Below are positions 57 through 45,898 of a DNA stretch of 64,000 bases, piece after piece; positions within the stretch are counted from its first letter, which is position 1, and each line of letters opens with the position of its first letter. The translations under genes and the position numbers were made by a program. Below the pieces are notes generated by a model. The model saw only the letters and a program-made list of their open reading frames with translations. It made no database searches and had not been told where the DNA came from. The stretch is taken from IMG/VR virus record IMGVR_UViG_2974548309_000001, positions 1 to 64,000 of that record; one strand, 5' to 3'. This DNA is from a virus.

Positions 57-73
57 TAGAGTCTTCGACTCTA
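57..73 (+). promoter_or_regulatory. Hairpin (7-bp stem tagagtc/gactcta, 3-nt loop ttc) followed by cTGGAG; candidate N4-type vRNAP early promoter hairpin (template-strand loop GAA)
   Basis: Perfect inverted repeat with a 3-nt loop read directly from the sequence. Four more hairpins with the same architecture and downstream TGGA lie upstream of early genes. N4 vRNAP promoters are known to be 5-7 bp stem / 3-nt loop hairpins. Confidence 0.45.
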
Positions 74-843: not shown

Positions 844-856
844 GTACCTTCGGTAC
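844..856 (+). promoter_or_regulatory. Hairpin gtacc-ttc-ggtac followed by tcgTGGAT; candidate vRNAP early promoter
   Basis: 5-bp stem with a 3-nt ttc loop, about 30 nt upstream of the ORF at 886. Same architecture as 57..73. Confidence 0.4.
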
Positions 857-2165: not shown

Positions 2166-2543
2166 ATGTATTCAGGAGGTCTCTTGAAAGTAATCGTAGC
2201 CGGTGGAAGGGACTTCACCGACATGGTGTACATGGACTCATGCATCAAGCAATTAGTCATGGATGGCAGCATCTCTGATAATTCAGAACTGGTGTGTGGC
2301 ATGGCTCGTGGTGCTGATATCACAGGGTTTAACCTTTGGTACTATCACTACAAGCTACCTATCCATAAGTTCTACGCTGACTGGAAGTCAGAGCCTAGAC
2401 GTGCAGGATTCATTCGCAATGAAGACATGGGTGATGTGGCTGATGTGCTGGTAGCATTCTGGGATGGTGAATCCCGTGGTACTAAGCACATGATTGACTA
2501 CATGACCAAGCTGGGCAAACCAGTCTTTATCTTCAAGTATTAA
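2166..2543 (+). CDS. SLOG / DUF2493 (YspA-like Rossmann) family protein; likely true start is TTG at 2184 after AGGAGG
   Basis: Motifs 'VIVAGGRDF' and 'VCGMARGADITG' resemble the SLOG/DprA-LOG glycine-rich loops. Confidence 0.5.
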   Translation: MYSGGLLKVIVAGGRDFTDMVYMDSCIKQLVMDGSISDNSELVCGMARGADITGFNLWYYHYKLPIHKFYADWKSEPRRAGFIRNEDMGDVADVLVAFWDGESRGTKHMIDYMTKLGKPVFIFKY

Positions 2544-2550
2544 TCTTCAT

Positions 2551-2567
2551 CACCGTCTTCGACGGTG
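2551..2567 (+). promoter_or_regulatory. Hairpin caccgtc-ttc-gacggtg followed by gTGGAG; candidate vRNAP promoter
   Basis: 7-bp stem, ttc loop, TGGA 2 nt downstream. Confidence 0.4.
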
Positions 2568-2604
2568 GTGGAGTTCTCCCTTAAGTTCTCCTTTCCCCTG
2601 TAAG

Positions 2605-2619
2605 AGCGACTTCGTCGCT
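2605..2619 (+). promoter_or_regulatory. Hairpin agcgac-ttc-gtcgct followed by ggTGGAA; candidate vRNAP promoter (second of a tandem pair)
   Basis: 6-bp stem, ttc loop; 43 nt upstream of the ATG at 2662. Confidence 0.4.
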
Positions 2620-2661
2620 GGTGGAATAATCCAAAAACCATTAACTATCGAGGTAATTATC

Positions 2662-3093
2662 ATGGCTACTATCAACAACTCTAACGAAGCTCGTTCTATC
2701 ATCGGCGCAGCGCTGGGTGGTAAGGGTAACGGAAATCGTCAGCAGTCCGGCGACCGTCCGCAAGCTGAATTCTTCATCAACATCGGCGTAACCGTTCCGA
2801 TGCCTGATGAAAACGGGGATATGGTGGATACCTTCCTGTCTCTGCCGTATGGCCTGCCGCTGGATACCATGAGCGAGCTGGTTATCCGTGGTAACAACGA
2901 GGTCTGGAACAATCAGGCCGCTGCCCGTAATGAGCTGCTGAAAGCTCTGGTGAAAATGGGTAGCGAGCTGGAAGCGGGTAGCGGTCAGGAGCTGCCGAAA
3001 TTGCAGGTTCAGCTCTATCGCCGTAAAGAGCAGACCGAGCATACCGCATCCACCAGCGCGGTCAGTGCCATCCTGAATGCACTGTCGTCGTAA
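2662..3093 (+). CDS. Hypothetical early protein (143 aa) with host-like, GC-rich codon usage
   Basis: Intact ORF whose GC content is sharply above that of its neighbours. It is flanked by tandem hairpin promoters upstream and a strong terminator downstream. Confidence 0.6.
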   Translation: MATINNSNEARSIIGAALGGKGNGNRQQSGDRPQAEFFINIGVTVPMPDENGDMVDTFLSLPYGLPLDTMSELVIRGNNEVWNNQAAARNELLKALVKMGSELEAGSGQELPKLQVQLYRRKEQTEHTASTSAVSAILNALSS

Positions 3094-3101
3094 TCAGTAA
3101 T

Positions 3102-3129
3102 GGGAACCTTCGGGTTCCCTTTATTTTTT
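3102..3129 (+). terminator. Intrinsic terminator gggaacc-ttcg-ggttccc + tttatttttt
   Basis: Perfect 7-bp GC-rich stem, UUCG loop and a T-run. Confidence 0.7.
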
Positions 3130-3138
3130 GGAGGGGAT

Positions 3139-3321
3139 ATGCGTCTATTAGCAGTGTTTCTACTGTTTATGGTTTGTTTCGGCAAGATAACAATAACCAT
3201 TGTTGATGAAGATACAGTGCAATACCGGCATCAAATGAAATGTGTCAAAGAGAAGATTGCCAACGGAATTCCTCGTAGTGCAATCAAGTTAACTACTGAT
3301 TCATGTGAGGTCATCAAATGA
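3139..3321 (+). CDS. Small hydrophobic protein (60 aa, MRLLAVFLLFMVCFGK...)
   Basis: ATG 9 nt after GGAGG, immediately downstream of the terminator. It corresponds to the 3' part of track ORF 3100..3321. Confidence 0.4.
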   Translation: MRLLAVFLLFMVCFGKITITIVDEDTVQYRHQMKCVKEKIANGIPRSAIKLTTDSCEVIK

Positions 3322-3485
3322 ATATATTCCTGTTGTTGCTGTTTATAGTGCTGCGCACGTTCACTGGGTTGTGTTGGTTTATAGCATCAGCGATATGGTT
3401 CCTGTTCTGTGTAATGATTGGGATTATATGCCTACCTCATTACATAGGTGTATTGGTCAGAACATTAAACAAGCCCTCGAAATGA
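3318..3485 (+). CDS. Small membrane peptide (55 aa, MNIFLLLLFIVLRTFTGLCWFIASAIWFLFCVMIGII...)
   Basis: ORF under the 60-aa track cutoff, ATGA-overlapped with the previous stop and strongly hydrophobic. Preferred over track ORF 3305..3745. Confidence 0.35.
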   Translation: MNIFLLLLFIVLRTFTGLCWFIASAIWFLFCVMIGIICLPHYIGVLVRTLNKPSK

Positions 3486-3514
3486 GGGCTTTAACATGCC
3501 GCTGGGAGATAGTC

Positions 3515-3745
3515 ATGAATAATGAACTACTTATATTTCTTAACGCCTTTGTAAGATCTAATACTTATAAGGGCAGATCGAAAATCTGTTCAACACTTCA
3601 ATCAGAAGCTGAAAACTGTCAAGGAGCTTCATGTAGTGAATGTATCATAATGACTCAACATATATTTGAATATGAATATCCAATAGTAATTATAAATGTG
3701 AGTCAGGCAATTAATCCTAAAGGATGGGATATTAATGAATCCTGA
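3515..3745 (+). CDS. MNxELIxIL-family small Cys-rich protein (member 1; MNNELLIFLNAF...CQGASCSEC)
   Basis: Internal Met of track ORF 3305..3745. It shares the N-terminal motif with six other small ORFs. Confidence 0.45.
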   Translation: MNNELLIFLNAFVRSNTYKGRSKICSTLQSEAENCQGASCSECIIMTQHIFEYEYPIVIINVSQAINPKGWDINES

Positions 3746-3959
3746 ATTAATAGAAATATTCAGAGCCATGAGATTAAAAACCTCATCTCTAATGGCACAT
3801 GATATAGGTCCATTAGATTTTATTTGTGAGTGTATAGAATTTAATGCATTAGATTGGTGTGGAATAAAAGGGGGATGTGACCATTGTCTTTTAGGTACTA
3901 AAGAAGTATTTGGATATTCCAATCAAATAATAGTTACTAATAAAAGACTATATAAATAG
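3735..3959 (+). CDS. MNxELIxIL-family small Cys-rich protein (member 2; MNPELIEIFRAM...)
   Basis: ORF carrying the shared N-terminal motif and Cys pairs (CECIE...CDHC). Confidence 0.5.
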   Translation: MNPELIEIFRAMRLKTSSLMAHDIGPLDFICECIEFNALDWCGIKGGCDHCLLGTKEVFGYSNQIIVTNKRLYK

Positions 3960-4003
3960 GACTATCGATATTGGTAGTCCAATATCAATGTCTTGTTAGA
4001 TAG

Positions 4004-4270: not shown

Positions 4271-4279
4271 GGGGTATGT

Positions 4280-4859: not shown

Positions 4860-4880
4860 TTTTCCTGTCGCTTCGCTCCT

Positions 4881-4893
4881 CAGCCTTCGGCTG
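4881..4893 (+). promoter_or_regulatory. Hairpin cagcc-ttc-ggctg followed by tagTGGGT; candidate vRNAP promoter upstream of the macro-domain gene
   Basis: 5-bp stem with a ttc loop, the same class as 57..73. Confidence 0.35.
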
Positions 4894-5643: not shown

Positions 5644-6152
5644 ATTACGATACTCAACTCCTCATTGATGATTTCAAGCATCATTTCAAATACCAACCTG
5701 ATGGGACGTTGATTCGGCAGAACAATCGCAGAAATGACTTAAATGGACAGGTAGCAGGAACCTTAACCAAGAAGGGATATGTTCAAATATCCTTTAAGGG
5801 GAAGTTCTATTATGCTCATCAAATAATCTGGGCAATCCACCACAACGAATTTGTGAAACAGATTGACCATATTGACCGTGTTAAACATCACAACTGGATT
5901 GAGAATTTACGCAAAGCTACAGCACAAACCAATGCTTATAACAAACAAGGTTCAGCCCGTGGTGGTAGTAAGTTTAAAGGCGTCTATTGGGCACCTCATG
6001 CCAAAAAGTTTGTAGCAAGAATTACAGTCAATAAACAGGTCAAGCATCTAGGGTATTTCGACGATGAGTACAAAGCTGCTGAAGCCTATAACAAAGCTGC
6101 TGCGATTCATCATAAACAATTCGCCTGTACGGAGCTGTCCAATGAGCAATAG
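5640..6152 (+). CDS. HNH homing endonuclease with C-terminal AP2 DNA-binding domain
   Basis: 'IDHIDRVKHHNWIENLR' is an HNH core. 'GVYWAPHAKKFVARI...LGYFDDEYKAAEAYNKAA' is AP2-like. Confidence 0.7.
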   Translation: MNYDTQLLIDDFKHHFKYQPDGTLIRQNNRRNDLNGQVAGTLTKKGYVQISFKGKFYYAHQIIWAIHHNEFVKQIDHIDRVKHHNWIENLRKATAQTNAYNKQGSARGGSKFKGVYWAPHAKKFVARITVNKQVKHLGYFDDEYKAAEAYNKAAAIHHKQFACTELSNEQ

Positions 6153-7071
6153 CTACGAAACTCAACGTTTAATAGAAATGATGTTTAGCAAGCACCAAGC
6201 TCGTGACCTCATAAGAAAAGAATTAAAAGAGTCACCAGATATTATGGAGCTAGTTAATAAGGCAGTAGAGAAAGCCAAAGAATGGCAGATGGGTGATTAC
6301 TTTGAAAGTAAGAATCGTCGATTAGCTATTCTGGATTCAGATATATTTGAAGATTTTTATATCGATGTAGCTGGTTCATTAGCTCAATTCGGTGTAGCCA
6401 AATACACTCAGATAGTTGGTATGGTTTCAGGCATGATTAAAAACATGTCTCAAAAAGAAGCCATACGAACTGCTGGAGAACTTATTGGTTTAGCAGCAAT
6501 CGTAGATTTGGTAGATGTAATACCAGCCAAGCTCAGTAACACTGGTTCAATGGAATTGGTTAGTCGTATCCAGCTTGAACCAAAAACTCTCAAACTCATC
6601 AATCAGTATCAGTACCTTCCTCCAATGGTAGTCCCACCAAGACCTGTTAAAGATAACAAAGGTAGTGGGTATCTATCTATTGAATGGGATTCTCTAATCC
6701 TGAAGAACAATCATCATGAACTGGATATCTGTCTGGATAATATCAACAGATTTAATTCAGTAGCGTTTGCACTGGATGACCGTGTTATCCGAAATATCCG
6801 TGATAACCGTAAGCATCTGGACTCGCCCAAGAGTGAGGAAACTCATGATGAATGGCAAGCACGAGTGGAGTCGTTCCTGAAAATGGAACGTGAATCCATG
6901 AAGGTATTTGCCATGTTAATTAACGAAGGAAACAGGTTCTATCTGACTCACAAGTATGACAAACGTGGTCGTACTTATTGTCAGGGGTACCATGTGTCCT
7001 ATCAGGGTAATACTTATCGTAAAGCCATACTTCAGTTGGCTGATAAAGAACTCGTTCCAGTGGAGGAATAA
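6142..7071 (+). CDS. N4-type RNA polymerase II, small subunit (T7-like RNAP N-terminal-equivalent fragment)
   Basis: Lies immediately upstream of the catalytic T7-like fragment. The chosen start is the ATG overlapping the HNH stop. Assignment is from N4 gene order. Confidence 0.5.
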   Translation: MSNSYETQRLIEMMFSKHQARDLIRKELKESPDIMELVNKAVEKAKEWQMGDYFESKNRRLAILDSDIFEDFYIDVAGSLAQFGVAKYTQIVGMVSGMIKNMSQKEAIRTAGELIGLAAIVDLVDVIPAKLSNTGSMELVSRIQLEPKTLKLINQYQYLPPMVVPPRPVKDNKGSGYLSIEWDSLILKNNHHELDICLDNINRFNSVAFALDDRVIRNIRDNRKHLDSPKSEETHDEWQARVESFLKMERESMKVFAMLINEGNRFYLTHKYDKRGRTYCQGYHVSYQGNTYRKAILQLADKELVPVEE

Positions 7072-7509: not shown

Positions 7510-8744
7510 GACTCAAGATGCAGACGTTCACTCCGTTCCAGTATATCAAATTAGATATTGCTAACTCCTTTGGTTTAGACAAGGAGTTGTTTGAGGACCG
7601 GTTAAACTGGTTCGAAGCAAATAAAGATAACTTATCTGGTTTGGTGGATGATGCAGATGAACCTGCACAATTCTACGCAGGTAAGTTGTGCTATGAAGAT
7701 ACCAAGGCAGGACTGCCTACAGGGTATCTGGTAGGTATGGATGCTACTGCATCTGGTCTACAGTGCATGGCAGCACTGACAGGCTGTAAAGTCACAGCAG
7801 AGACTGTGAACATGGTTAATCCTGATGTACGTCATGATGCATACACCGATGGCTATAAAGTCATGGGTGACCTGCTGGATGGCAAACTGGATAAGATTGA
7901 ACGTTCTCATACCAAGGATGCGACTATGACCCATTTCTATGGGTCGAGAGCTAATCCAGTAAACCTGTTTGGTGAGAACACCATAGAGCTTCAGAAGTTC
8001 TATGAAATGGTTCAAATCATTGCTCCAGGTGCAAACATGCTCCGTGACGATTTGATTGCCCTATGGCAGGCAAATGCCCTACAGCATCACTGGACACTTC
8101 CAGATGGATTTAATGCTGTAGTTAAAGTCATGGTTCCGATGGAAGATAGCTTTGAAGTTAATGAACTGAATAGCTCGTTCACTCATCGTTATTGGGTTAA
8201 CCAAGGTCAGAAAGCTGGTCTGTCACTTGCAGCAAATGTCATTCACTCAGTAGATGGGATGATTGTTCGTGAGATGAATCGTCGTGCTAACTACGATTTG
8301 CTCAAAGTACAGCGTGTATACGAGCTTCTGACGAGTTCTACTAAGGCAGGCAGTGTTAAGCCTTCAGTAAGTGATACAAGGCTTGCACAGGCTCTTAAAT
8401 TAACTGAATCCCATAAGTTTGTATCTGCTGTTCTGATTGAGTTTATCGACCATCTCAATATTCACATGGTTCCTCATTGGGTTCGTAAAGAACTAATTGA
8501 AATCATTGAGAAGATGTTAGCTCATAAACCATACCCGATAGTGTCAATTCACGATTGTTTCAAATGTCATCCTCTATACATGAATAATGTACGTCAGAAC
8601 TATATCGATATCTTTGCACAGATTGCTGACAGCAATATGCTGTCTGCTATTGCATCTCAGATATCTGGTAAGCGTATTCCTGTCGCTAAGCTGTCTAACG
8701 ACCTGTCCAAATATATCCGCCAGAGTAATTACATGTTGAGCTAA
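7506..8744 (+). CDS. N4-type RNA polymerase II, catalytic subunit (T7-like single-subunit RNAP palm/fingers)
   Basis: 'GMDATASGLQCMAAL' matches T7 RNAP motif A, 'DGSCSGIQHFSAML'. 'SIHDCF' matches motif C, 'HDSFGT'. First ATG at 7518. Confidence 0.7.
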   Translation: MRLKMQTFTPFQYIKLDIANSFGLDKELFEDRLNWFEANKDNLSGLVDDADEPAQFYAGKLCYEDTKAGLPTGYLVGMDATASGLQCMAALTGCKVTAETVNMVNPDVRHDAYTDGYKVMGDLLDGKLDKIERSHTKDATMTHFYGSRANPVNLFGENTIELQKFYEMVQIIAPGANMLRDDLIALWQANALQHHWTLPDGFNAVVKVMVPMEDSFEVNELNSSFTHRYWVNQGQKAGLSLAANVIHSVDGMIVREMNRRANYDLLKVQRVYELLTSSTKAGSVKPSVSDTRLAQALKLTESHKFVSAVLIEFIDHLNIHMVPHWVRKELIEIIEKMLAHKPYPIVSIHDCFKCHPLYMNNVRQNYIDIFAQIADSNMLSAIASQISGKRIPVAKLSNDLSKYIRQSNYMLS

Positions 8745-34416: not shown

Positions 34417-34445
34417 CCCATCCTTGGGGCTTTTTCTTTTAGTAC
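34417..34445. terminator. Bidirectional terminator aagcccca-tcc-ttggggctt flanked by A- and T-runs, between convergent rightward middle genes and the leftward vRNAP gene
   Basis: Perfect 9-bp stem with T-runs on both strands. Confidence 0.65.
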
Positions 34446-37400
34446 AGTTCAACCAGTGGGTGTACTGTGAATCCATTCAATGCAGTACCTATCCCAATGT
34501 TGTAGTTCAGGCTGCCAGTCACTAAGTTAGCGTCAGTGATGTTCGGCAGATTCGATTCCCAACTATTACTGAACATCAGGAAGAGTGCTCTCAGTGGATT
34601 CTCACGAATCGTTCTGAGAATAACTTTCTGAATTCTAATCTTATAGTTCAGGAACCAAGTTAATCCCATTGCATCCAGATAGAATCTGGTACGACTTGGA
34701 AGGATATCGTAGTTAACGAATTCATCCATCACTCGTGCAATGGCACTATCTTTATCCATTGGATTATTCTTACGAGTAGTCAGCTGTTTATACAGTGAAT
34801 ACTTAGCAACGAAGTCACCATACTGAATTGAACGGTTTAGTAAGAAGTAGATATGACTATCTCTTGAAAGTGTTACTTCCTTAGCAACTCGTTTAACACT
34901 GTCTGGAACAGAAGAAGTGTATTCGTCCATTTTGGTTAACAGTTTATCTTTCAGAGAGTAATCATCCTGCTGACCTAAATCCTCTGCGATAGTAGGCAGT
35001 AAACCTGCTTTGATTAAATCAGCAACAGGGTTACGGGCCTGTGAATCTTTGAGTTCAGAAATCTTTCTCTGATACTCATCAGCCATCTTAGGATTCTGTC
35101 CTACAGCCAGATAGTGAGAATACTCGTTAATCAGTTTCTCATTTCTTCTGTATTCTTCAGCAGCCAATACAGCTACAGACATGTCTTTAGCCATAGTAAC
35201 TGGACTGATGCCTACAGTCGCTAAGTGAACCATGTTGGAAACAATGTTGGCTGCTGATACGACTACTGAACGTACAACAATCCAATCTTTCATTTCCTTC
35301 ACAAATTCCATAATCCCACGCTCACCTAAGCGGAGATACTTAGCAGCATTCTTACCTAAGAATGTCTCTGCGATACTCACAAAGGCTTTCTGGAACTCTT
35401 TAGAGTAACCAGTCTGACCAGCCCACATATTCAGTACAGAAGGCTCACGATAACCAAATGCGTTATTCAGTAAGTCTTTACGTACCTTGATATCACCATT
35501 AGGCCAAATCTTTTTGGCAGCTTCTTTCATTTCAATTGGCATCAACTCATAAATCTCTTTGAGCTGTGCATCAGTTGAGTTCTTATTGATAGTGATGTAC
35601 TGGTATGCATTGCCTTGGCGAGCATCTTTCACATACATCTCATGCAATCTCTGAAGAAGCATCTCATTGTATTTCTCAGCCTGAATCTCCTCAGCAATAC
35701 GACCTTCCCAAGCTGCCATTACCTTAGTGAAATCATTATCAATATCCAGATGTGCTTCTTTGTTAGCACGAGGAATTTGATAAGAGTATCCCATGATTGA
35801 ACCAGCTCTATTCAGAGTAGGTTGCATATAGCTCTGAGTACCAGTAGGCATAGGCTTATTGGCATCAAACAGTTCATCAACCTTACTACGTTTCAGAGTA
35901 GCTAATGCAGTTTTCTCCTTACTACCCCAAACACCTGGGGTCATTGAACCATTAACACTTCTACCTGAAATTGGGTTTACACCACCTACGGTGGTTTGTA
36001 GGGTGCTCATTACCCCAGCAATCCAACGAGGCTCACCACCATTATTTGAGTGGTAGTAGTACATTGGCTGCTTGCTTAGGTCACTTGGGTCACGAGCAAA
36101 CTGAGCACCTCTGACGTAGCCTCTACGAATCAGGCTTGGCTCATCTAAAACAGATGCCACAATGACCTTTTTATTTGGGTCAGTCAGAGTAGGCGTGTAA
36201 CCTTTTACAGCTGCCAGAGACTGATTCTTACCAGATTTGGCTAACTCAGCACTCTGCAAACTGCTGTAATATTTCAGCGTAAAAGTCATGCCATTGTTAT
36301 CTGGCTCACCTTTAGTCATCTCTCTACTGATGACATTACTTACAGTTTCTTTATCAGCTTGTGACAATTCAGTCAGAGCTGACAATGAAGCCAGAGTATC
36401 AATCAGCTGCGTAGCTGAGTTAACAACAGTATCGTTAGGTCTGACTTTACCAGTACCGATTAAGCGAGCAATAGCCGCAGCATTAGGCAACTGATAAACC
36501 AGTGGACTAACTCCATGCACCATTTGCTTAGCCAAGCCTTTAGCAGACTTAATATAGAATGGGGCATTCTGGGCACCAACTGAATTGAGCTGAGATTCCA
36601 TAGAAGCAATCTCTTTAGCCAGTTCATTTGGATTAGTCAGTAACTCATTCAGACGAGCCAAGTCATATCCATTGGCAAACAGATAAGCCATATCAGTATT
36701 AGCAACCACCTTCTGAATAGCTTCTTTCTCAGTCTGGTTCAGTGAAACAAAAGTCTGCTCAATCATGCCCGGAACCATCTCACGAATAATCTGACGTGCT
36801 CTATCAGCAGCCATGTTCTTCTGAGTTAACAAGGTATGAATGCTCTGATTGGTTTCATTGGAACCAATGAATTCATTAACCAGTTCAGCCAGAGTACCCA
36901 GCTTATCATCCTGATGAATGTTCATCATGATAGTGGTAATTGCTGTACGCACGTCCTGAGCATCTTGGTCATTGAATACAGCAGAACCAGCACTGATACC
37001 AAACGCTACAGACTTAGGAACAATCTTCTGTACCTTGAGTAACTGGTTTCTAACCATGTGACCAAAGGCATTCAGTTTATCCTGAACAGTCTGCGAGATT
37101 TCTTCGCTACCACGTTCAACTCTTCCCAGCAGATTATCTCTGACTTCACTATCAACATGGCTAATGTTTTTAGCCAGTTTAGTTAAGCGAGTAGCAACAG
37201 TAGCATTGGACAGAGATTTAGTAGCCAGTCCTGACAGCCAAGTCAGAATGGAATTAACTAAATCACCAATACGTTCTCTGATGGTAGTAGCCGGTGCTGA
37301 ACGAGTACGTTTAACACTCATTTGAGCCAGTTTATTTCTCAGAGGTTCATTGGTTTCTGCTAATGCAATAAAGTTAGCCAATCTGTTAGTACGACCAGTA

Positions 37401-40400
37401 GCATCAGTAGTGATAGCAGTATTGCCAAATACAGCATAATATCTCTGTTTAGCCAGAGCCATCTCAGTAGCAGACGTGTTGTTAGGGTCAGTGAGGAAAT
37501 CACTATACTTCAACTGGTCTCTTGCCTGAGCATACAGACTACGTGCTACCAGAACATTTGGAGAGAAATTCTCCAGACCATACTTCATAGATACCTGAAG
37601 CATCTTGAAGACAAACGCCTCTTTCTCACTCATGTCAAAACCATGAGCAATCAGAGCATCTGGAGATTTATCAATCTCAGGGTCAATGCTATCTACCAAG
37701 AGTTTCTCTTGGAAATGGTCCAGACCAGAAATCTGCTGACCAGATTGTTTAATCACTCTAACAATATTTGACTGGAGATAATCCAGAGTATCAGTCAAAT
37801 GATTGATATGGTCTTGCGTTGCTTTACCCGGTTTCAGTTTGTTGAACAAGGTTTCAGCATCCAATCTGTTAATGTTGTTGGCATTACGCTGTGCAAAACT
37901 GGTTACATCGTCTGTATTCACAGAAGTTGTAGCATCAGTTAATGCAACAGTATGACCTAGCAGTCTTGACCAGTAAGAGTTAATCTCTGGATTAGAACCA
38001 ATTGCAAACAAGCGCTTGATAGAATCAGCTAACTGTTTCAGCACATTGGTAACCTTACCGGCAATAGTCTTCTTAGTCATTGCATCAATCATTCTTGGGT
38101 TAACTAAACCCCATGCAATGAATTCAGCAGTAGCCTGAGCCATATCACCAGTTTCAATGTGATTCTTAATCAGATTAACTACAGAATCTGTTTCTGGATT
38201 AGTGTTTGTATATTCATTAACAAACTTAGTCATGAGAGCTTCAATAGAAGCAATCTCAGTTCTCTGATTTGGATTTAGACTGGTTGGGTCAATGTAATAA
38301 GCCTGAACAGTATTGGCAGTAGCAGCATGGATTAACTCATGCATAACTGTCTCAATAGACTGAGAACCGATATAGATGTTCTGGCCTTCTGTAAGCCCTA
38401 AGAAGCTGTTAGTAAACTTAGCCTTAGTATCAGGCGTCATTTCTTGTTGAATAGCTGATAGAGCTTCTGGAGAGCCTACATAAACATTAATATCGTTAGG
38501 AATGACTTTCTCAATTTTATCAAGAATAAATCCAGTGATTTTATTCTGACGAGATGGCAGAGATTTAGCTGCCTCTCTAACAGCAGCAACCACATCACCT
38601 TTAGCCAGAACTTTAACACCTTCATGACCAGCCAGATTTCTACCATTCTTATCCAGAGCCTCAGTCATCTGACGAGTAGGTGGAATGGTTACTCTACCCA
38701 TAGGCAGAGATACTGAATCCATAGTTGGTAATTCAGTATTAGAAACTAATTGCTCCAGAGGAGTTCTGATATCAGTAGCTTGTTCACTGGTCTGCTTACC
38801 ATTCTGTACATTGAATGGAATGTTAGCACCAGTCATCTGGTTAATAGAGGTAACTGTATCACCAGCAAATAAACCTCGTTTGATAGCAGTCTGAGTAGCA
38901 GCTTCTCTCTTAAGCAGAGTAGTGAATGCTTTCATTACTTCTGGGCTAGTAGGTGAATCAGTTTCATCAGCACCAATCATTTCCATAATTCCACGGAAAG
39001 ATTGTCCCAGACGAATATTAGCTTCTGGACCTAATTCCTCTACTAAATTCACTCCATCCATTGCTTGTTCAAAGCGGTTAGTGAAATCTTGCAGTAAATC
39101 GAATTCATTCCAGCTTTGCAGAACACCTTGGTTAATAGCCTGTGAACCAGACTCAAGATGCTGAACAGCATTGATGTAACCATCGAATACGTTAAGTGCG
39201 TTATTCGGGTTGATATCACGAGCAATGGCTTGCATAGCTGCTTCTACAGACTGAACCAATAAAGGCATTACACGAGTACCTGGTTCGGTATAGGTAGGCA
39301 TGTCTACACCAAAGGTAGACCTACGCATTTTACCATCTAGTTCTCTACGCCCTCTGGACTCCATTCTGTATACATCAGATGGAATACGTCCTTCCTCACT
39401 CAGAAGAATACCTTCGTTCAGCCTATCAACATCTAAGTTGTTAGCAGTGAACCATGAATTAAAAATTGGCATTGAACCAATCAAATAATTCTTAATGTCA
39501 TTGTACTGCTGCTGAGATAAAGACTCATATTTAGAGAGCTTACCTGCTTTACGCAGTTCATCTTCTAAACGAGTTACTTCTTTATTCCATCGAGCCATGA
39601 ACACTTCATGCATCACAGCAGCAGCGTAAACCATCATCTTGCCACGGTTAATTACAGTACCAAATTCAGTAGCAATAGACTGATTAACAGCAGCGCCAAT
39701 CCCGATTTTAATGTTTTGAGTGATAGCATCAATTTGTTCTCCGGAGAATTTAAATTGGGTTACATCAGACCCTAAATTAATAGGTTCTCCGATATTAACC
39801 CAGTCACCATTACGGAATACACGAGCAGAAGTTAACTCGTTAGTAGTTTGAGTCAGGTCTTGGATATGAGCAATTGCAGCATCTCTCTCTTCAACAGTAG
39901 TTGCTGAATCCACTGCTCTTAATGCTTTAGTAATTGCTTCGTAGTAACCATTAACAATACCCATAGCAATCTTTCTATTAATAGCGTTAGCACCACCAGA
40001 ATAGACTGTTACGGTTACTGGATTCTTAAGTAATCCACGACCAATCTTAATTGTATGTTCAACTTGTTCACCTTCGACAATATTCACATCACCAATTAGT
40101 TTGTAAGCAGCCAGAGTTACACGCACCTGATTTCTCAGACGTTCAATGTTTCTGGTTTCCTCCCGCTGTTCCTGACGAGACTTACCTTTCATAGCTGCAA
40201 TTCTGTTAGGAATAGCACGGAAAGAGTCCATCATATTGTTGATGTACTGTTGAGTACCAGCAGCAGCAGTCTTATATAGGTCTAAGAATCCTGGGTCTTC
40301 AGCAGCATCATTGTACAGACGGTCAGATTGAGCATAGAACAAACCACCCTTCTCCAGTTTATCTAGAAGGTCTTGGTTAATATCTTTTAATCCAAGATGG

Positions 40401-43400
40401 ATAATAGAGTTAAATGGACCGTTAGTAACACCATCAAGCTCCAACATGATATGGGTCTGGAATGACTCTTTACCTTGCTCTACAGCCAGCTCATATTGAG
40501 CCTGTGCATACAGTGCATGAAGAGTTTTAGTCTTCTCTTTACCTGCATTCACAGCCTCTAACAGAATCTCTGCATCTGCATCACTAATAAAGTCCTGATT
40601 CTCCGCAGCTTTAAGAATATTGATAGCATCTCTAAACAGGCCAGTATCGATAGCTTTATTCACTCTATCTCTGGCTGTATTAGAAGACAGCTTATCAATT
40701 GCAATACCCAAACCTTGAGCAATAGCATAATCAAGAAATGCATTATGTAGAGGATTATTCAGTTCAATAGTAGATGGCTCAACAGTAACCAATTCACGAT
40801 GTAACTTAGAAGCCTGTGGATTCAAGTCACCTGAGTTCAACATCATACGATAGTTACTGATGACGTTATAAGCAAAGTAGATTGGAGTAGTAGCAAGGTC
40901 TTTACCTGCTTCTACCATACGAGTTAAACCATTAACTAAAGTATTAATGTCTCGTTCAATGGTACGGTTAGAACCCTGAATAGATTTCAAATGAGCCTCG
41001 TTAGCATTCTCTTCTGACTGAATGCCTAACATTCTACCAGTCCATTGAGTACCTAACTTATCAAGCATCAGGTCATGTAGACCCATGTTAATGAAGTGAG
41101 GTTGTTTGCTACCTTTATTACGGGCAGCAAGCGCCTTCTTAGGAATATCCTGACCACCACCATTTTTAACTTTAGTGCTCTGATTTTTTGGTGGAGTACC
41201 GAAGTATGCACCTGCTCTTTCTCTCTGAGGATTAGTCAATTGACCTAATAGGTCATTAGAATCCTGCATTAATTTTACTAAACGAGTAGCAGCCTCTGAC
41301 TCTTCATTCATACGAATGAATACACGAGAGTTCTTCATGTTTGAAAAAATAACTTTAGGAGAACCAACAGCAGCTAATTCACTATTCTTAACAACAGTTT
41401 CCTGAACTAAACCAGCATTAATCATGACGTTCAGTACTTCAGTTGCCAGTGCTTTAGACACAGCATCACGTACAGAAATAGGTGCATTAGGGTCTGCATT
41501 GATACCTAATACCCCAAAGATTTCTCTGCTTAAATAATCAATAACATTCTGACGGTCAGTACCAACGTTACGTAGTAAGTCAACCTGTTCTACAGTAGGT
41601 CTGGTTTTGTTATCTAAACCAAGAATATCCATAACTGCTCTGTCATCATTGAATGTAGTTTCAGATGCATTACGTACAAACCACTGCATCATTCCAGCAG
41701 TCATTGCTTCAATAACTGGTTGAGGTAAGAAATAAACATTCTCATCATTGATGTTTCTAACTTCATTAAAGTACTCAACAGGATAAGTTTCCCAGAAGAT
41801 ACGTTGACCTTCAGGAGTTAATTTACCCCAAGACTGAAGCAGAGACTGTTCAATAGCAGGCACTAAACCAGCAAATTGACGAAGTACATTTACTTCTTTC
41901 TCAGTTACTTGTTCTGGTTGAATGAATCCTTTAAACAGATTCTGAATCTGAGTAATTGGGTTAGAGCCATTAGTAAAGATGTTATTAAGTCTCCCAGAGA
42001 AATTAGAAGTTCTCAGGAATGCTGAACGTTTACCAGTAGGTTTAAACCATTTCTTAACTTGGTTAGTGGCCTGATATTCTTTATCAGCATCTGAAGTAGA
42101 TTTAGCATCAGAACGTACAGTCTCTGCCTGTAACCCATTCAGAATGTCATAGTTAACACCTTTATCTAAACCAAGGTCTAACTGAGACTCATCCATTAAG
42201 TCTGTTTCAACAGATGTAGGAGTTTCCTGAATCTGAATATCAGATTCTACAGTTTCTGGTTTCTCAAACAGTTCACCCTGAACAGGTTCTTCATTAACCT
42301 GTGCTGGAGCTTCTGTAACAGCCTCTGGCTGTGTTTCTGTAGTCTCAACCGGTGTTTGTACCTCTTCCTGAGAAGTCTCTTCAGAAGGCGCTACAAGAGC
42401 TTTTGAAGCAGTGTTGAGTTGAGATAAGGTCTTCTCATAAACTGCTTTAATTGCATTTTTCCCTGCTTCAGTAATTTCTCTAGTACCTACACCAGCAAAG
42501 TTCTTAGTCAGGACTGGGGTGCCAGTTTGTATAAACTTTCCATTACTGTAGGTGTACCAGTTATTGTCTTTTTGGTTGAACACATATACAGGTTTACCTT
42601 GGTCAACGGCCATTTGTACTGCCCAACCAGTACCCCCTTCAACAATATTCCCTGCAATGTTGCCAATGGCGAAGACTGCATCAGAGTTCAATACTTGATA
42701 GTAGTTACGTTGCAGCAGAGTACGCACATAAGCATTACTTGGTGGATATCGACGGCCCAGGGATTCATTAGCTTTCTTCAAAGCAGGATCTGCTTTAGCT
42801 AACTGCTCTGCTGTTAATGGAGTATTTCCTTTAGGTGTTTTGTTTCCTGCTCCAAAGTAATGAGCTGAATTACCTAAACCAAACAACTTACCTACCGTAT
42901 CCCAAACAGTATCGGAACCTACTGCACCACCTGAATGCAGTGTGTAGTCTGATATACCAACGTCTGAAGAGGGTGACAAAGTAGTATTAGTCTCTTGCGT
43001 CTCCTTGTAACTAGTTGTTTGCTTAGGAGTGCTTGCAGGAGCTTCTGTAGTATCCTGAGTTTGATTAACTTCTTCAGTAGCCATAGGCTGAGACTCAGCA
43101 GGTACTTCAACAGGTTTACCATCTACTAGTTGACTTGTAATAGTGTGTGCCTGTCTTACAGCAGCAGCATCATTACGAATTTCCTGTATTAAGTTCTTAG
43201 AACGTACAGGATGATAAGTCATAGGATTTCCATCCAGTGACAAATATGGTTGACCAGTAATAGGGTTGACTACCATTACAGGCTGATTACCAGTGAAATT
43301 CTCGGCTGCCAGCTCAAATGCATTAACTTTGGTTTCCATGTGCGTAGCAAAACTGTTCAGATGGTCTAACAGACCCTGAGCACGTTTAGTATCACCTAAT

Positions 43401-45898
43401 GATAATGCACGGAAGATACCTTGCTGATATTGCTGAATACCAATAAACCCTTCAGAACCCTGACGTACATCCTGACTTACCTGACTCATAACTTTGCCAG
43501 TAGCAGAGATGACTCTCAGCTTGTTTAAGTCTTGTTGGCTTAAACCAATAGCATCTGCTGAGTTAATCAGTTTATCTGCTGTCTCAGGAGTAATAGATGC
43601 AGCATCTAAATTCATTTGAGCCAGAACAGATTTAACTCCTTTCTGTACTTCAGGAGACTGGTAGGTCTCTGGAGTAATTTCAGAAGGCAGTGATTCCATG
43701 ACTTTAGTCATTTCATCAGGAGTCAGTTTAAAGCTTTCAGCAGTAGTCTTGATGGCTTGTACATCAGGATTACTCAGTACTGCATTGATGTTATCAATAG
43801 CAGTCTGATACTGAGCTTTCTGTTCTTCTGGAGCAGATTCCATCTGTGCCTGAATGTTAGGCAGAGCTTCTTCATATGCAGAGATAACGTTGTTACCAAC
43901 AGTAGCAAGGTCACGTCTTGAAGCTTCATCCAGTTGACGATTACGGATTGCACGAGCAATACGCATAATTGAATCAGGAGAGCTGATTTCTTCTTCTGGG
44001 ATGGCTTTAAAGACTTCTTTTGCAGCTGGTTCAGTAACAGCATCTACAGCTTTAGTAGCAGGAGCTGCTTCTGGAGTAGCAGTTTCTGGTTGTGGAGAAG
44101 TCTGCTGAACAGATTCATTAGCAGTATTTACAGTGTTTCTGAAATCCTGTGCTCTGGTTTGTTCTTTTTGAGCTTGTCTCTCATTAAATGCACTACGACC
44201 CTGCTGGATTCCTTCCTGAATTGCTCTAGGTGTTTCACTAACAGCCGAACCAAAAGCACCCATACCCGCACCAGCAAGAGCAGACTCAGCAACGTTTGAA
44301 CCAATATCTTCAGATAAGGACTGAGATTCATCAGCAGAAGTCCGTACACCGAGATTAGAGCCAAATTGACCAGTAGCCCCTTGCGATGCTTCCTCAACAG
44401 TCTCTTTAAGTGTGTTACCAAGGATGCGTGATGCAGCACTTGAGAATCCTTTACCTTCTAATAATGAAGGAGAGAAAATTCGAGATTCAAATGGAGCAGC
44501 AAGTTTACCTGTTAACGCACCCAACGTACCTGCTACAGCAGCTGTGACGTTACCAGCCTGAGTACGCACTTGTCTTCTGGCTTGGTCTTTAGACATATCA
44601 TCAGCAATGAGGTCTCTGTACATAGGAGACTTCTCAGCAAGCTGAGCATCAGTCATTCTATCAATCTGGTCGAGAGTCTGCTGCATGTTAGAACCAGCTT
44701 CTTGGAAGCCAACATAACTAACAAAAGCATTCTCAGCAGCATTCTGAAGTTTTTCTCTACCATATTTGGTAGCAACTAACTTAGTAGCAAAATCTTCACC
44801 ATACTCTTTAACTAGTTCTTTAAATGCACCACGGGTAGCTAACTTACCTACTAAACCACCAGTTAATAAATCAGGAGCAGATTCTGCAATCAGAGTAGTT
44901 AATGCACCTGGTTTATCTCCATACTGTTCAGCAGTGTTAACGAACTGGCGCAGCTGTTCCTTAGCACCAGCGACTAATGGATTATCACCTTTAGCAATGT
45001 CAGCAGCTTCACGCTGAGCACCTTGGTTCTTGAACTGTTCTTTCTGTGCTTCAATCACAGATTGTTCATACAGGATACCTGGAGAGTATTGACCTCTCTG
45101 TTCATCAGTAAATTCTTTTAAAGGTTTATCAATACCTGCTTGGTCTATCAGAGTAGGTTGACCTGCTAAGTCTTCACGTCCAGTTACATCAGCAATTAAA
45201 TCCTGGGTATTTTGGGTAGCCAGATTAACTAAACCAAGACCAAAGCGAGCTGTGTTACCTAACCAAACTTGAGCAGCATTACCAATGTCACTGGCTTCAA
45301 TACCCTGACCAGAGAATTCATCAGTGTTTGCCTGAGCGATATTCAGAGATAACTTATCTCGTGCAGCTTGAGGTCCATACTTCTGCTGTAGAGCAGCAAT
45401 AGGCATGTACTGTAAGTCTTCCAGATACTGCTGATTAGCAGGAATTTGAGCCTGTTGTGCAGGTGCCTGATAGTTTGGATGGTTCGGGTCAAATGGGCCA
45501 GTACCACCAAATTCTGGAGACACTTGGGGGTTAATCATCTTGCGATAGAAAGGTTTAGTACGTGCAATAGCATCGTAGTTAGCCTGCATCTCAGGAGTGA
45601 TTGGCTGTGCTTCTGAAATACTAAAATCATTAATATTGCCAGTATTAGCAGGAGCAGTAGGAGCAGCAGTAAGCATCTGAGTCATCTGCTCACGAGTATA
45701 TTTAGGACCTGCTTCTGCTAAACGAATAGCTTCCTGTGCTCTCTGGTATCCCGGGGAACCAACAGGAAAATCAATCTCTACTCCCGGAACAGGAGCACCC
45801 ATCTCTACACGTTTCTGTTGAGTAGCTTGATTTAGTTCTTGTGCTTTTTGCGCCCCAACACCAGATAACTGTTGTTCTTTTTCAAATCCGGTAGCCAT
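34439..45898 (-). CDS. Giant virion protein (3,819 aa), N4 gp50-type virion-encapsidated RNA polymerase (vRNAP)
   Basis: An uninterrupted 11.5-kb ORF at the position and orientation of N4 gp50, at the head of the leftward late block. It contains an internal SLOG/DprA-like Rossmann segment. Identification is by size and synteny; polymerase motifs were not verified. Confidence 0.7.
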   Translation of the reverse strand: MATGFEKEQQLSGVGAQKAQELNQATQQKRVEMGAPVPGVEIDFPVGSPGYQRAQEAIRLAEAGPKYTREQMTQMLTAAPTAPANTGNINDFSISEAQPITPEMQANYDAIARTKPFYRKMINPQVSPEFGGTGPFDPNHPNYQAPAQQAQIPANQQYLEDLQYMPIAALQQKYGPQAARDKLSLNIAQANTDEFSGQGIEASDIGNAAQVWLGNTARFGLGLVNLATQNTQDLIADVTGREDLAGQPTLIDQAGIDKPLKEFTDEQRGQYSPGILYEQSVIEAQKEQFKNQGAQREAADIAKGDNPLVAGAKEQLRQFVNTAEQYGDKPGALTTLIAESAPDLLTGGLVGKLATRGAFKELVKEYGEDFATKLVATKYGREKLQNAAENAFVSYVGFQEAGSNMQQTLDQIDRMTDAQLAEKSPMYRDLIADDMSKDQARRQVRTQAGNVTAAVAGTLGALTGKLAAPFESRIFSPSLLEGKGFSSAASRILGNTLKETVEEASQGATGQFGSNLGVRTSADESQSLSEDIGSNVAESALAGAGMGAFGSAVSETPRAIQEGIQQGRSAFNERQAQKEQTRAQDFRNTVNTANESVQQTSPQPETATPEAAPATKAVDAVTEPAAKEVFKAIPEEEISSPDSIMRIARAIRNRQLDEASRRDLATVGNNVISAYEEALPNIQAQMESAPEEQKAQYQTAIDNINAVLSNPDVQAIKTTAESFKLTPDEMTKVMESLPSEITPETYQSPEVQKGVKSVLAQMNLDAASITPETADKLINSADAIGLSQQDLNKLRVISATGKVMSQVSQDVRQGSEGFIGIQQYQQGIFRALSLGDTKRAQGLLDHLNSFATHMETKVNAFELAAENFTGNQPVMVVNPITGQPYLSLDGNPMTYHPVRSKNLIQEIRNDAAAVRQAHTITSQLVDGKPVEVPAESQPMATEEVNQTQDTTEAPASTPKQTTSYKETQETNTTLSPSSDVGISDYTLHSGGAVGSDTVWDTVGKLFGLGNSAHYFGAGNKTPKGNTPLTAEQLAKADPALKKANESLGRRYPPSNAYVRTLLQRNYYQVLNSDAVFAIGNIAGNIVEGGTGWAVQMAVDQGKPVYVFNQKDNNWYTYSNGKFIQTGTPVLTKNFAGVGTREITEAGKNAIKAVYEKTLSQLNTASKALVAPSEETSQEEVQTPVETTETQPEAVTEAPAQVNEEPVQGELFEKPETVESDIQIQETPTSVETDLMDESQLDLGLDKGVNYDILNGLQAETVRSDAKSTSDADKEYQATNQVKKWFKPTGKRSAFLRTSNFSGRLNNIFTNGSNPITQIQNLFKGFIQPEQVTEKEVNVLRQFAGLVPAIEQSLLQSWGKLTPEGQRIFWETYPVEYFNEVRNINDENVYFLPQPVIEAMTAGMMQWFVRNASETTFNDDRAVMDILGLDNKTRPTVEQVDLLRNVGTDRQNVIDYLSREIFGVLGINADPNAPISVRDAVSKALATEVLNVMINAGLVQETVVKNSELAAVGSPKVIFSNMKNSRVFIRMNEESEAATRLVKLMQDSNDLLGQLTNPQRERAGAYFGTPPKNQSTKVKNGGGQDIPKKALAARNKGSKQPHFINMGLHDLMLDKLGTQWTGRMLGIQSEENANEAHLKSIQGSNRTIERDINTLVNGLTRMVEAGKDLATTPIYFAYNVISNYRMMLNSGDLNPQASKLHRELVTVEPSTIELNNPLHNAFLDYAIAQGLGIAIDKLSSNTARDRVNKAIDTGLFRDAINILKAAENQDFISDADAEILLEAVNAGKEKTKTLHALYAQAQYELAVEQGKESFQTHIMLELDGVTNGPFNSIIHLGLKDINQDLLDKLEKGGLFYAQSDRLYNDAAEDPGFLDLYKTAAAGTQQYINNMMDSFRAIPNRIAAMKGKSRQEQREETRNIERLRNQVRVTLAAYKLIGDVNIVEGEQVEHTIKIGRGLLKNPVTVTVYSGGANAINRKIAMGIVNGYYEAITKALRAVDSATTVEERDAAIAHIQDLTQTTNELTSARVFRNGDWVNIGEPINLGSDVTQFKFSGEQIDAITQNIKIGIGAAVNQSIATEFGTVINRGKMMVYAAAVMHEVFMARWNKEVTRLEDELRKAGKLSKYESLSQQQYNDIKNYLIGSMPIFNSWFTANNLDVDRLNEGILLSEEGRIPSDVYRMESRGRRELDGKMRRSTFGVDMPTYTEPGTRVMPLLVQSVEAAMQAIARDINPNNALNVFDGYINAVQHLESGSQAINQGVLQSWNEFDLLQDFTNRFEQAMDGVNLVEELGPEANIRLGQSFRGIMEMIGADETDSPTSPEVMKAFTTLLKREAATQTAIKRGLFAGDTVTSINQMTGANIPFNVQNGKQTSEQATDIRTPLEQLVSNTELPTMDSVSLPMGRVTIPPTRQMTEALDKNGRNLAGHEGVKVLAKGDVVAAVREAAKSLPSRQNKITGFILDKIEKVIPNDINVYVGSPEALSAIQQEMTPDTKAKFTNSFLGLTEGQNIYIGSQSIETVMHELIHAATANTVQAYYIDPTSLNPNQRTEIASIEALMTKFVNEYTNTNPETDSVVNLIKNHIETGDMAQATAEFIAWGLVNPRMIDAMTKKTIAGKVTNVLKQLADSIKRLFAIGSNPEINSYWSRLLGHTVALTDATTSVNTDDVTSFAQRNANNINRLDAETLFNKLKPGKATQDHINHLTDTLDYLQSNIVRVIKQSGQQISGLDHFQEKLLVDSIDPEIDKSPDALIAHGFDMSEKEAFVFKMLQVSMKYGLENFSPNVLVARSLYAQARDQLKYSDFLTDPNNTSATEMALAKQRYYAVFGNTAITTDATGRTNRLANFIALAETNEPLRNKLAQMSVKRTRSAPATTIRERIGDLVNSILTWLSGLATKSLSNATVATRLTKLAKNISHVDSEVRDNLLGRVERGSEEISQTVQDKLNAFGHMVRNQLLKVQKIVPKSVAFGISAGSAVFNDQDAQDVRTAITTIMMNIHQDDKLGTLAELVNEFIGSNETNQSIHTLLTQKNMAADRARQIIREMVPGMIEQTFVSLNQTEKEAIQKVVANTDMAYLFANGYDLARLNELLTNPNELAKEIASMESQLNSVGAQNAPFYIKSAKGLAKQMVHGVSPLVYQLPNAAAIARLIGTGKVRPNDTVVNSATQLIDTLASLSALTELSQADKETVSNVISREMTKGEPDNNGMTFTLKYYSSLQSAELAKSGKNQSLAAVKGYTPTLTDPNKKVIVASVLDEPSLIRRGYVRGAQFARDPSDLSKQPMYYYHSNNGGEPRWIAGVMSTLQTTVGGVNPISGRSVNGSMTPGVWGSKEKTALATLKRSKVDELFDANKPMPTGTQSYMQPTLNRAGSIMGYSYQIPRANKEAHLDIDNDFTKVMAAWEGRIAEEIQAEKYNEMLLQRLHEMYVKDARQGNAYQYITINKNSTDAQLKEIYELMPIEMKEAAKKIWPNGDIKVRKDLLNNAFGYREPSVLNMWAGQTGYSKEFQKAFVSIAETFLGKNAAKYLRLGERGIMEFVKEMKDWIVVRSVVVSAANIVSNMVHLATVGISPVTMAKDMSVAVLAAEEYRRNEKLINEYSHYLAVGQNPKMADEYQRKISELKDSQARNPVADLIKAGLLPTIAEDLGQQDDYSLKDKLLTKMDEYTSSVPDSVKRVAKEVTLSRDSHIYFLLNRSIQYGDFVAKYSLYKQLTTRKNNPMDKDSAIARVMDEFVNYDILPSRTRFYLDAMGLTWFLNYKIRIQKVILRTIRENPLRALFLMFSNSWESNLPNITDANLVTGSLNYNIGIGTALNGFTVHPLVELY

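Follow-up and report, generated by a model that had tools for sequence, protein, structure and literature searches.

Why should one short early gene of a virus stand behind two consecutive hairpins, be closed by a strong terminator and use codons that set it apart from the early genes around it, and what does its 143-aa product do? The window analysed here, that is, the whole stretch of 64,000 nucleotides (IMG/VR record IMGVR_UViG_2974548309_000001, positions 1 to 64,000), carries this arrangement at positions 2551-3129, and the sequence-only reading of it had proposed a self-contained unit designed for very high and very early expression of a protein without recognisable motif, perhaps a host-takeover or anti-defence effector. 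Our analysis confirms every element of the architecture at its stated coordinates, with a limit on how self-contained the unit is, and replaces the function: with a probability of roughly 85%, we consider the unit to be the counterpart, in Klebsiella phage Pylas, of the P2-gp2-terminator early transcription unit of phage N4. This reading is carried by the homology of the protein, the match of the hairpins to a promoter motif, the covariation of their stems, the codon bias, the terminator and the presence of the partner genes.

The protein of the unit is related to N4 gp2

Positions 2400-3300 match the record of Klebsiella phage Pylas (MH899585.1) at 100% identity, and the numbering is the same in the window and in that record. 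This phage is an N4-like podophage of the Schitoviridae (Humphriesvirinae, Pylasvirus), i.e., a schitovirus. In its GenBank record, the ORF at 2662-3093 is entered as Pylas_009, 'DNA binding protein; conserved hypothetical RNA polymerase subunit', positions 2545..2577 are marked 'terminator', and no promoters are annotated.

A tblastn search with the 143-aa protein (2662..3093, + strand) returned 207 phage records from many host genera, many of the matches being labelled 'N4 gp2-like', 'RNAP1 subunit A' or 'ssDNA-binding protein', and included N4 gp2 itself (EF056009, E 8e-11). Direct BLASTP of Pylas_009 against N4 gp2 gave E 1e-18 with 34% identity over 115 aa, and phrog_4099 was the sole PHROG matched by both proteins (1.3e-37 for Pylas_009 and 2.8e-50 for N4 gp2). 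The similarity is both significant and full-length: in a multiple alignment, conservation extends across the entire protein, with shared RPxA, N-x-G, SLPxGLPLDT and LxVQLxRxKE motifs. Both proteins are acidic, with a pI of 4.97 for Pylas_009 and 5.20 for the 128-aa N4 gp2, the latter being the figure quoted for gp2 in PMC7145618. Scans of Pylas_009 against Pfam and NCBIfam returned no match (the Pfam copy scanned did not include PF26984) and no OB-fold or SSB domain, while precomputed tables show PF26984.1 to be carried by all database homologues of the protein; an Rfam scan of the cassette region returned no match either. Hence, the premise that the protein lacks recognisable relatives was wrong, since Pylas_009 is related to N4 gp2, that is, to a known housekeeping protein of phage.

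The genomic setting is also that of a gp2 gene, at 2.7 kb from the left end, in the early region, downstream of hairpin promoters and in a genome that encodes RNAPII. Pylas possesses the full set of partner genes: a gp1-like gene (Pylas_001, 181-519), assigned through phrog_5020, a family common to it and N4 gp1 (their pairwise BLASTP is insignificant); the N4 gp15-like small subunit of RNAPII (Pylas_021, 6142..7071, + strand; phrog_2166 'N4-like RNA polymerase', E 5e-114); the N4 gp16-like large subunit (Pylas_024, 7518..8744, + strand; PF00940 E 4e-16, phrog_2051 E 2.5e-160); and a virion RNA polymerase (vRNAP) of 3819 aa (34439..45898, - strand; BLASTP with N4 mini-vRNAP, residues 998-2103, E 2e-48 at 23% identity). 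The two RNAPII subunits are the presumed partners of the Pylas gp2 homologue, and the vRNAP is the enzyme expected to read the hairpin promoters described below.

N4 gp2 is a non-specific ssDNA-binding protein that binds the gp15-gp16 heterodimer (RNAPII) (PMC4496689, Rothman-Denes review), brings this polymerase to middle promoters in single-stranded form and is needed, by genetic evidence, for middle transcription (PMC4496689). By its homology, Pylas_009 is a relative of N4 gp2 and, as such, a component of the phage's own middle-transcription machinery, for which we predict sequence-independent binding of ssDNA and recruitment of RNAPII. It is important to note that the gp2 function is transferred to Pylas_009 by homology, as identity with N4 gp2 is only 34%.

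We also ran a structure-prediction search on the 143-aa protein. An AlphaFold2 model built with 41 homologues reached a mean pLDDT of 69 (moderate), with ten-residue blocks across residues 31-120 averaging 75-86, and contains a beta-hairpin (42-60) and a long helix (80-101); the termini are mostly of low confidence, with pLDDT below 50 at residues 1-31 and 125-130. Fold searches with this model gave no significant match to a solved fold and retrieved neither an OB-fold nor a structure of Drc, the LUZ7 cofactor discussed below; no DNA-binding fold is recognisable in the model. Accordingly, Pylas_009 showed neither sequence or fold similarity to Drc (LUZ7 gp14) nor the fold of an OB-fold SSB. 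Our literature search found no published gp2 structure. Given a moderate model and no solved-fold match, structure neither confirms nor explains ssDNA binding by this protein.

Two predicted tandem hairpin promoters precede the gene

The two consecutive hairpins reported upstream of the gene, starting at 2551 and 2605, are present, have 3-nt loops and fit a promoter type. The distal one (2551..2567, + strand; CACCGTC-ttc-GACGGTG) begins 8 nt past the stop codon of Pylas_008 and pairs 2551-2557 with 2561-2567 (7 bp) around the loop TTC at 2558-2560, read as GAA on the template strand; the proximal one (2605..2619, + strand; AGCGAC-ttc-GTCGCT) pairs 2605-2610 with 2614-2619 (6 bp) around TTC at 2611-2613. 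Both are thus inverted repeats with a 3-nt loop and a stem within the 5-7 bp range. Folded as ssDNA, they reach -8.7 kcal/mol (z -3.6) and -6.5 kcal/mol (z -4.0), respectively, relative to shuffles. An identical GGTGGA lies directly 3' of both hairpins, 13 of 15 positions are the same in a loop-anchored alignment (TTCGaCGgTGGTGGA vs. TTCGtCGcTGGTGGA), and the exact 15-mer TTCGNCGNTGGTGGA is found at these two sites only. The predicted starts, each a G in the RNA located 11 nt from the loop centre in the direction of the left-end early genes, are G2570 for the distal and G2623 for the proximal hairpin, the latter giving a 39-nt leader. The spacing of the two promoters is 53 nt.

For a looser motif, TTCGNNNNTNNTGG, the window contains 10 copies where 0.97 are expected, a count reached by none of 100 shuffles. 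A stem of at least 5 bp around TTC is formed by exactly five of these copies, each of them between genes on the + strand and no further than 4.9 kb from the left end; their loops start at 64, 849, 2558, 2611 and 4886. Besides the tandem pair, these comprise predicted promoters of the same type at 57..73 (TAGAGTC-ttc-GACTCTA, + strand), in the terminal repeat and upstream of the gp1-like gene; at 844..856 (GTACC-ttc-GGTAC, + strand), upstream of Pylas_002 to Pylas_008; and at 4881..4893 (CAGCC-ttc-GGCTG, + strand), upstream of a macro-domain gene and the RNAPII genes.

The hairpin consensus is shared across subfamilies, with one lineage-specific position

The left end of N4 contains GTTGC-ttc-GCAAC-TTATGGA and GAAGC-tcc-GCTTC-TTTTGGA, the second just upstream of gp2, and we assign these two hairpins, by position and consensus, as the probable P1 and P2 promoters of N4. 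We built a search motif on the five hairpins of Pylas and relaxed it at one loop position so that the TCC loop of N4 P2 would also be accepted; the widened motif picks out both N4 sites as well as syntenic hairpins in the seven relatives scanned (KpCHEMY26, MY01, SP154, TR2, Shigella B2, FSL SP-058 and Pollock), with five syntenic sites per early region wherever the fetched locus reaches them. Of copies with 4 bp or more of stem, the same scan returned none on the opposite strand.

The 23 distinct instances collected in this way show little or no variation in the loop, the C:G closing pair, T(-4), T(-1), G(+1) and G(+2); the closing pair is unchanged in 23/23, and TGG at -1 to +2 is invariant in all 23. 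Four of the five inner stem pairs vary on both sides (50 of 115 cells), and the covariation score is 1.03 vs. 0.20 for shuffled data. Possession of a stem was a selection criterion for the 23 instances, so that their pairing as such carries no information and only the covariation does.

The coding sequence around the cassette is about 72-80% identical to that of seven phages outside Pylasvirus, and the upstream intergenic region shows 88% identity across eight phages, above the surrounding coding sequence. Neither the proximal hairpin nor its flanks vary in any of the 8 relatives; the distal hairpin is kept in 8 phages and, in TR2, has undergone compensatory changes in its stem (ACTGGC-ttc-GCCAGT).

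The determinants reported for N4 promoters are template -11A/G, -10G, -8G and +1C and the loop-closing G:C pair (PMC4496689). With the loop placed at -12 to -10, both Pylas hairpins have the template loop GAA, a C:G closing pair and +1C, that is, the loop 5'-G(-10) R(-11) A(-12)-3' closed by -9C:-13G. Position -8 does not follow N4: the non-template base is A (2562) in the distal and T (2615) in the proximal hairpin, corresponding to template T and A instead of G. The same position is variable in all Humphriesvirinae instances and is C (template G) in N4 P1, N4 P2 and G7C. In N4, template -8G is contacted by residue R904 of vRNAP, and its absence from both Pylas hairpins means that recognition details must differ from those of N4. 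We compared vRNAP residues, with the numbering offset validated on N4, to see whether the lack of -8G is matched by a change at the contacting residue; the equivalent of R904 in the Pylas enzyme appears to be Arg, and the -11 recognition element did not align, the alignment being of low identity (23%). Because of position -8, we file the Pylas hairpins as putative promoters of the same mechanistic class, lacking the specificity of the N4 enzyme and read by the Pylas enzyme. Their promoter activity is predicted from the sequence, and extrusion dependent on supercoiling and SSB, followed by initiation by vRNAP, is likewise putative, by analogy with N4.

The gene has capsid-like codons, a predicted leader of low structure and an intrinsic terminator

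The higher GC and host-like codons noted for ORF 2662-3093 proved to be extreme for this genome: its GC (0.555) and GC3 (0.636) are both the highest of 79 ORFs (means of 0.41 and 0.36), and its fraction of E. coli-type optimal codons is 0.745 (rank 2 of 79). Leu is encoded by CTG in 87% of cases, Arg by CGT in 86%, Ile by ATC in 100% and Pro by CCG in 83%, and AGA, AGG, ATA and CTA are absent. The major capsid gene of Pylas has a matching profile (CTG 89% of Leu, CGT 92% of Arg), and the other early genes show CTG at 22%, AGA plus AGG at 39% and ATA at 28%. In all orthologues examined, optimal-codon content and GC both exceed the values for the remainder of the respective early locus, N4 gp2 included (Fop 0.71; GC 0.43 vs. 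0.37 for the early locus). That is, the codon bias is a trait of the family, not the scar of a transfer, because every examined orthologue has it. Among the three Pylasvirus genomes, GC3 of the gp2 gene is 0.64, 0.57 and 0.51; the Pylas gene exceeds those of KpCHEMY26 and MY01 in GC3 but not in E. coli-type optimal codons, and for this reason we do not claim directional codon optimisation within Pylasvirus. The extreme GC3 of the Pylas gene goes with a GC-rich host.

A Shine-Dalgarno sequence, GAGGT (2650..2654, + strand), lies 7-8 nt ahead of the ATG and is evident both in the sequence and as a GenBank RBS feature. For the leader that begins at the proximal start, folding gives -3.2 kcal/mol, no better than shuffles, and an RNA-level element in the leader was rejected on this ground.

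Downstream, the proposed UUCG-loop terminator at 3102..3129 (+ strand; GGGAACC-UUCG-GGUUCCC followed by UUUAUUUUUU) is genuine by terminator scan, RNA folding and conservation. It is a GC-rich stem-loop followed by a U-tract, as an intrinsic terminator should be, with a 7-bp stem (5 GC pairs), 9 U in the 10 nt past the stem and a folding energy of -14.7 kcal/mol. Across nine phages including N4, CCUUCGGG is invariant and the outer stem covaries; the same holds for CCTTCGGG, which is invariant in these 9 phages while the stems covary. The U-tract runs straight into the RBS of Pylas_010, and there is no hairpin promoter in 3129-4881; given both, the AT-rich ORFans at 3139-4859 probably need read-through or middle promoters for their expression.

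How self-contained the unit is depends on which end is considered. It does have its own predicted promoters and its own terminator, but no T-tract terminator separates it from the upstream Pylas_008, so that transcripts from the promoter at 849 can read into it.

Comparison with related and analogous cassettes

The closest described counterpart is the P2-gp2-terminator unit of N4. Like Pylas, N4 has, in its left-end early region, a homologous protein (34% identity, same PHROG, similarly acidic pI); upstream of its gene stands a hairpin promoter with a 3-nt loop that shares the consensus for loop, closing pair and start, and downstream an intrinsic terminator with a CCUUCGGG loop, all in a genome with gp1-, gp15- and gp16-like genes and a vRNAP. 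The differences are that Pylas has two tandem promoters where N4 has one, that seven extra early genes lie between the gp1-like and gp2-like genes of Pylas, that template -8 is not G in Pylas, and that GC3 is 0.64 in Pylas vs. 0.32 in N4, i.e., the enrichment is much stronger.

The cassette of promoter, gp2, CCUUCGGG and terminator is found in G7C as well as in N4, with a single promoter in each. In G7C, a hairpin (GACGC-tcc-GCGTC-ttatgga) lies directly upstream of the gp2 homologue and a UUCG terminator is present, and in Klebsiella phage KP8 a predicted hairpin promoter (GGGCTGC-TCC-GCAGC-CTTTGGA) likewise lies directly upstream, corresponding to the single putative promoter P3 described before the homologue named 'RNAP1 subunit A' (PMC6950046). 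Both phages, which belong to subfamily Enquatrovirinae and relatives, differ from Pylas in having one promoter and a TCC loop (template GGA) in place of TTC. Because N4, G7C and KP8 each have one promoter, the doubling is a feature of the group comprising Pylas, Ithaca, Pollock and TR2.

Pseudomonas phage LUZ7 offers a parallel for the doubling. Its two strongest early starts belong to tandem hairpin promoters 33 nt apart that drive Drc, the top-expressed phage gene with up to 64% of phage transcripts (PMC9163698), and Drc (LUZ7 gp14) is a functional analogue of gp2 that can coat ssDNA (PMC9163698; PMC7145618). Thus, in both phages an early gene for an ssDNA-binding RNAPII cofactor stands behind tandem hairpin promoters, the cofactor role in Pylas being predicted by homology. 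Drc, however, is reported to be unrelated in sequence to gp2, is basic (pI 9.2 vs. about 5) and is able to bind supercoiled DNA, and the LUZ7 starts lie 13-14 nt from the hairpin centre as opposed to the 11 predicted in Pylas. In short, the known N4 gp2 cassette has in this unit a well-constructed representative, whose promoter doubling is specific to its group and parallels LUZ7.

Alternative explanations

Of the alternatives, the one raised initially for this locus is that the 143-aa protein is a host-takeover or anti-defence effector, with strong expression flooding the cell with an inhibitor of host functions. An early gene that is strongly expressed by design, and whose product matches nothing in the Pfam and NCBIfam libraries (again, with a Pfam copy that lacks PF26984) and has no solved structural relative, would suit such a role, and for Drc, the non-homologous analogue, toxicity upon expression in its own host has been reported (PMC7145618), so that Pylas_009 may also have a secondary effect on the host. 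We nevertheless consider an effector very unlikely, as the clear, full-length homology is to a protein with a role in phage middle transcription, the gp2 homologue co-occurs with the RNAPII genes, and the gene is both conserved and syntenic in the 207 phage records from many host genera, a pattern that fast-evolving anti-defence genes do not show. Even less credible, and in our view close to negligible, is the possibility that the composition of the gene reflects recent horizontal acquisition from a GC-rich source (the host or another phage) rather than selection for expression. The gene has a GC of 0.555 within an early region of 0.39, Klebsiella genomes have about 57% GC, which is near the value for the gene, and the range of GC3 given above is a wide spread for three close relatives. 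A recent arrival, however, should not be syntenic across the family back to N4, nor should its flanking intergenic signals be conserved along with it in the seven closest relatives (the downstream terminator aligns even with that of N4), nor should each orthologue, N4 included, surpass its neighbouring genes in optimal codons and GC. Moreover, in its codons the gene mirrors the capsid gene of the same phage, and a capsid-like profile is a classic signature of translational selection.

The remaining alternative concerns the promoters and holds that only the proximal hairpin (2605-2619) is one, the distal hairpin (2551-2567) being a terminator or pause site for transcripts of Pylas_002 to Pylas_008. 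This would agree with the GenBank terminator feature at 2545..2577, with the location of the hairpin 8 nt past the Pylas_008 stop codon, with the single promoter before gp2 in N4, G7C and KP8, and with the fact that a terminator precedes P2 in N4. It is nonetheless an improbable account: no T-tract follows the stem and the terminator scan did not report this hairpin, which instead matches the promoter consensus through +3 and equals the proximal promoter at 13 of 15 positions; in TR2, covarying changes in the stem leave the loop, closing pair and start region intact; and tandem active hairpin promoters are documented in LUZ7. Hence, we favor two tandem promoters in front of the gp2 homologue.

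Proposed mechanism and implications

Under the preferred reading, i.e., a Pylas counterpart of the N4 gp2 unit, the following sequence of events can be proposed by analogy with N4 and LUZ7. The injected vRNAP (34439-45898) would recognise hairpins extruded on the template strand, with a 5-7 bp stem, the loop 5'-GAA-3' and a C:G closing pair, and would begin RNA at the G located 11 nt downstream of the loop centre (G2570 and G2623). The tandem promoters, together with a short leader of low structure, a good Shine-Dalgarno sequence and capsid-grade codons, would then yield an abundant, early, acidic protein of 15 kDa, and the UUCG intrinsic terminator would halt most transcripts, leaving gp2 mRNA far above the mRNA of the downstream AT-rich ORFans. 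As in N4, Pylas_009 would coat ssDNA without sequence specificity, bind the heterodimeric RNAPII (Pylas_021 and Pylas_024) and bring it to melted middle promoters, thereby effecting the switch from early to middle transcription.

With respect to expression level, our literature search found no expression data on gp2-family genes, and the design for very high and very early expression that had been proposed for the unit is the best reading by inference, because of the promoter fit, the capsid-level codons, the genuine terminator and the precedent of Drc in LUZ7. By the same reasoning, the unit appears to be built, as in LUZ7, to supply early and in quantity a cofactor that coats DNA stoichiometrically. 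That tandem promoters recur before an RNAPII cofactor suggests that the abundance of this cofactor limits the early-to-middle switch.

We further hypothesize, with the odds in our estimation evenly balanced, that promoter doubling before an RNAPII-recruiting, ssDNA-binding cofactor arose independently in two lineages (before gp2 in Pylas/Ithaca/Pollock/TR2 and before Drc in LUZ7) and that the gp2 family may have an ssDNA-binding fold without a solved relative. The latter part rests on the predicted model, whose beta-hairpin, long helix and disordered termini are neither an OB fold nor Drc-like. If true, independent doubling in front of unrelated cofactors would point to a general selection for stoichiometric amounts of DNA-coating cofactors.

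The results also sharpen the annotation of a group of Klebsiella phages that are therapeutic candidates: five early promoters (predicted) had been left unannotated, one of these being mislabelled as a terminator, the gp2 homologue can be named, and the RNAPII subunits can be told apart from the virion polymerase. In addition, the 23 covarying hairpins separate what is held across subfamilies (loop, closing pair, -4T, -1T, +1G and +2G) from what is lineage-specific (-8), and this set should aid the understanding of promoter recognition by virion RNA polymerases. Finally, Pylas-type hairpins could serve as compact, orthogonal expression signals.

Predicted hairpin promoters of the early region

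The first of the two hairpins preceding Pylas_009, the gp2 homologue, lies within a segment labelled as a terminator in GenBank (2545-2577). This label is doubtful because the segment has no T-tract and instead fits the hairpin-promoter consensus of the virion RNA polymerase (vRNAP) through +3; that is, the terminator label is probably a mis-annotation. The pyrimidine-rich spacer separating the two hairpins contains a direct repeat, GTTCTCC, in two copies (2573-2579 and 2585-2591), which is kept in most relatives.

Three more hairpin promoters of the same type (i.e., with a TTC loop and the pattern G N4 T N2 TGG), all absent from the annotation, are predicted upstream of the gp1-like gene (57-73), Pylas_002 (844-856) and the block with the macro-domain gene and the genes for RNAPII, the phage's second RNA polymerase (4881-4893). 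Relatives carry syntenic copies, and their stems covary.

Putative middle-transcription genes and the start of N4 gp2

The gp1-like gene, Pylas_001 (181-519), shares a PHROG protein family (5020) with N4 gp1, a proposed second cofactor of middle transcription; pairwise BLASTP between the two is insignificant, and the optimal-codon fraction of Pylas_001 is fairly high (0.69).

As for gp2 itself, the gene annotated in the N4 record (EF056009, 586-1071) starts at ATG 586, which lies 10 nt past the predicted start of P2, the hairpin promoter assigned upstream of N4 gp2, and lacks a Shine-Dalgarno (SD) sequence. ATG 685 has a GGAGAG SD, and both homology and PHROG coverage begin there. The annotated start is probably too far upstream. 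Translation from ATG 685 gives a protein of 128 aa with a pI of 5.20, in agreement with the literature value for gp2 (PMC7145618).

Despite being annotated as "virion RNA polymerase subunit", the genes at 6142-7071 and 7518-8744 are, by their family and domain assignments (phrog_2166, phrog_2051 and PF00940), gp15/gp16-like subunits of RNAPII. Two small ORFs (7071-7509) lie between them; in N4, we take the gp15 and gp16 genes to be adjacent.

Other genes in the window

Several small Cys-rich early ORFs (3515-4859, 5437-5643 and 7300-7509) share an N-terminal "MN.EL(I/L).IL" motif and look like one paralogous family; the DNA in which they lie is very AT-rich (GC 0.26-0.36). An intron-split NTPase gene (12826-14695) and the HNH endonuclease carried by its intron (13280-13864) are listed here from the GenBank annotation only. 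Finally, high expression or acquisition may account for the other codon and GC outlier besides Pylas_009, namely Pylas_042 (17609-19051). This gene encodes an AAA+ ATPase (PF00004), which the annotation describes as an FtsH-like metalloprotease, and has a GC of 0.525 and the highest optimal-codon fraction in the window (0.80).
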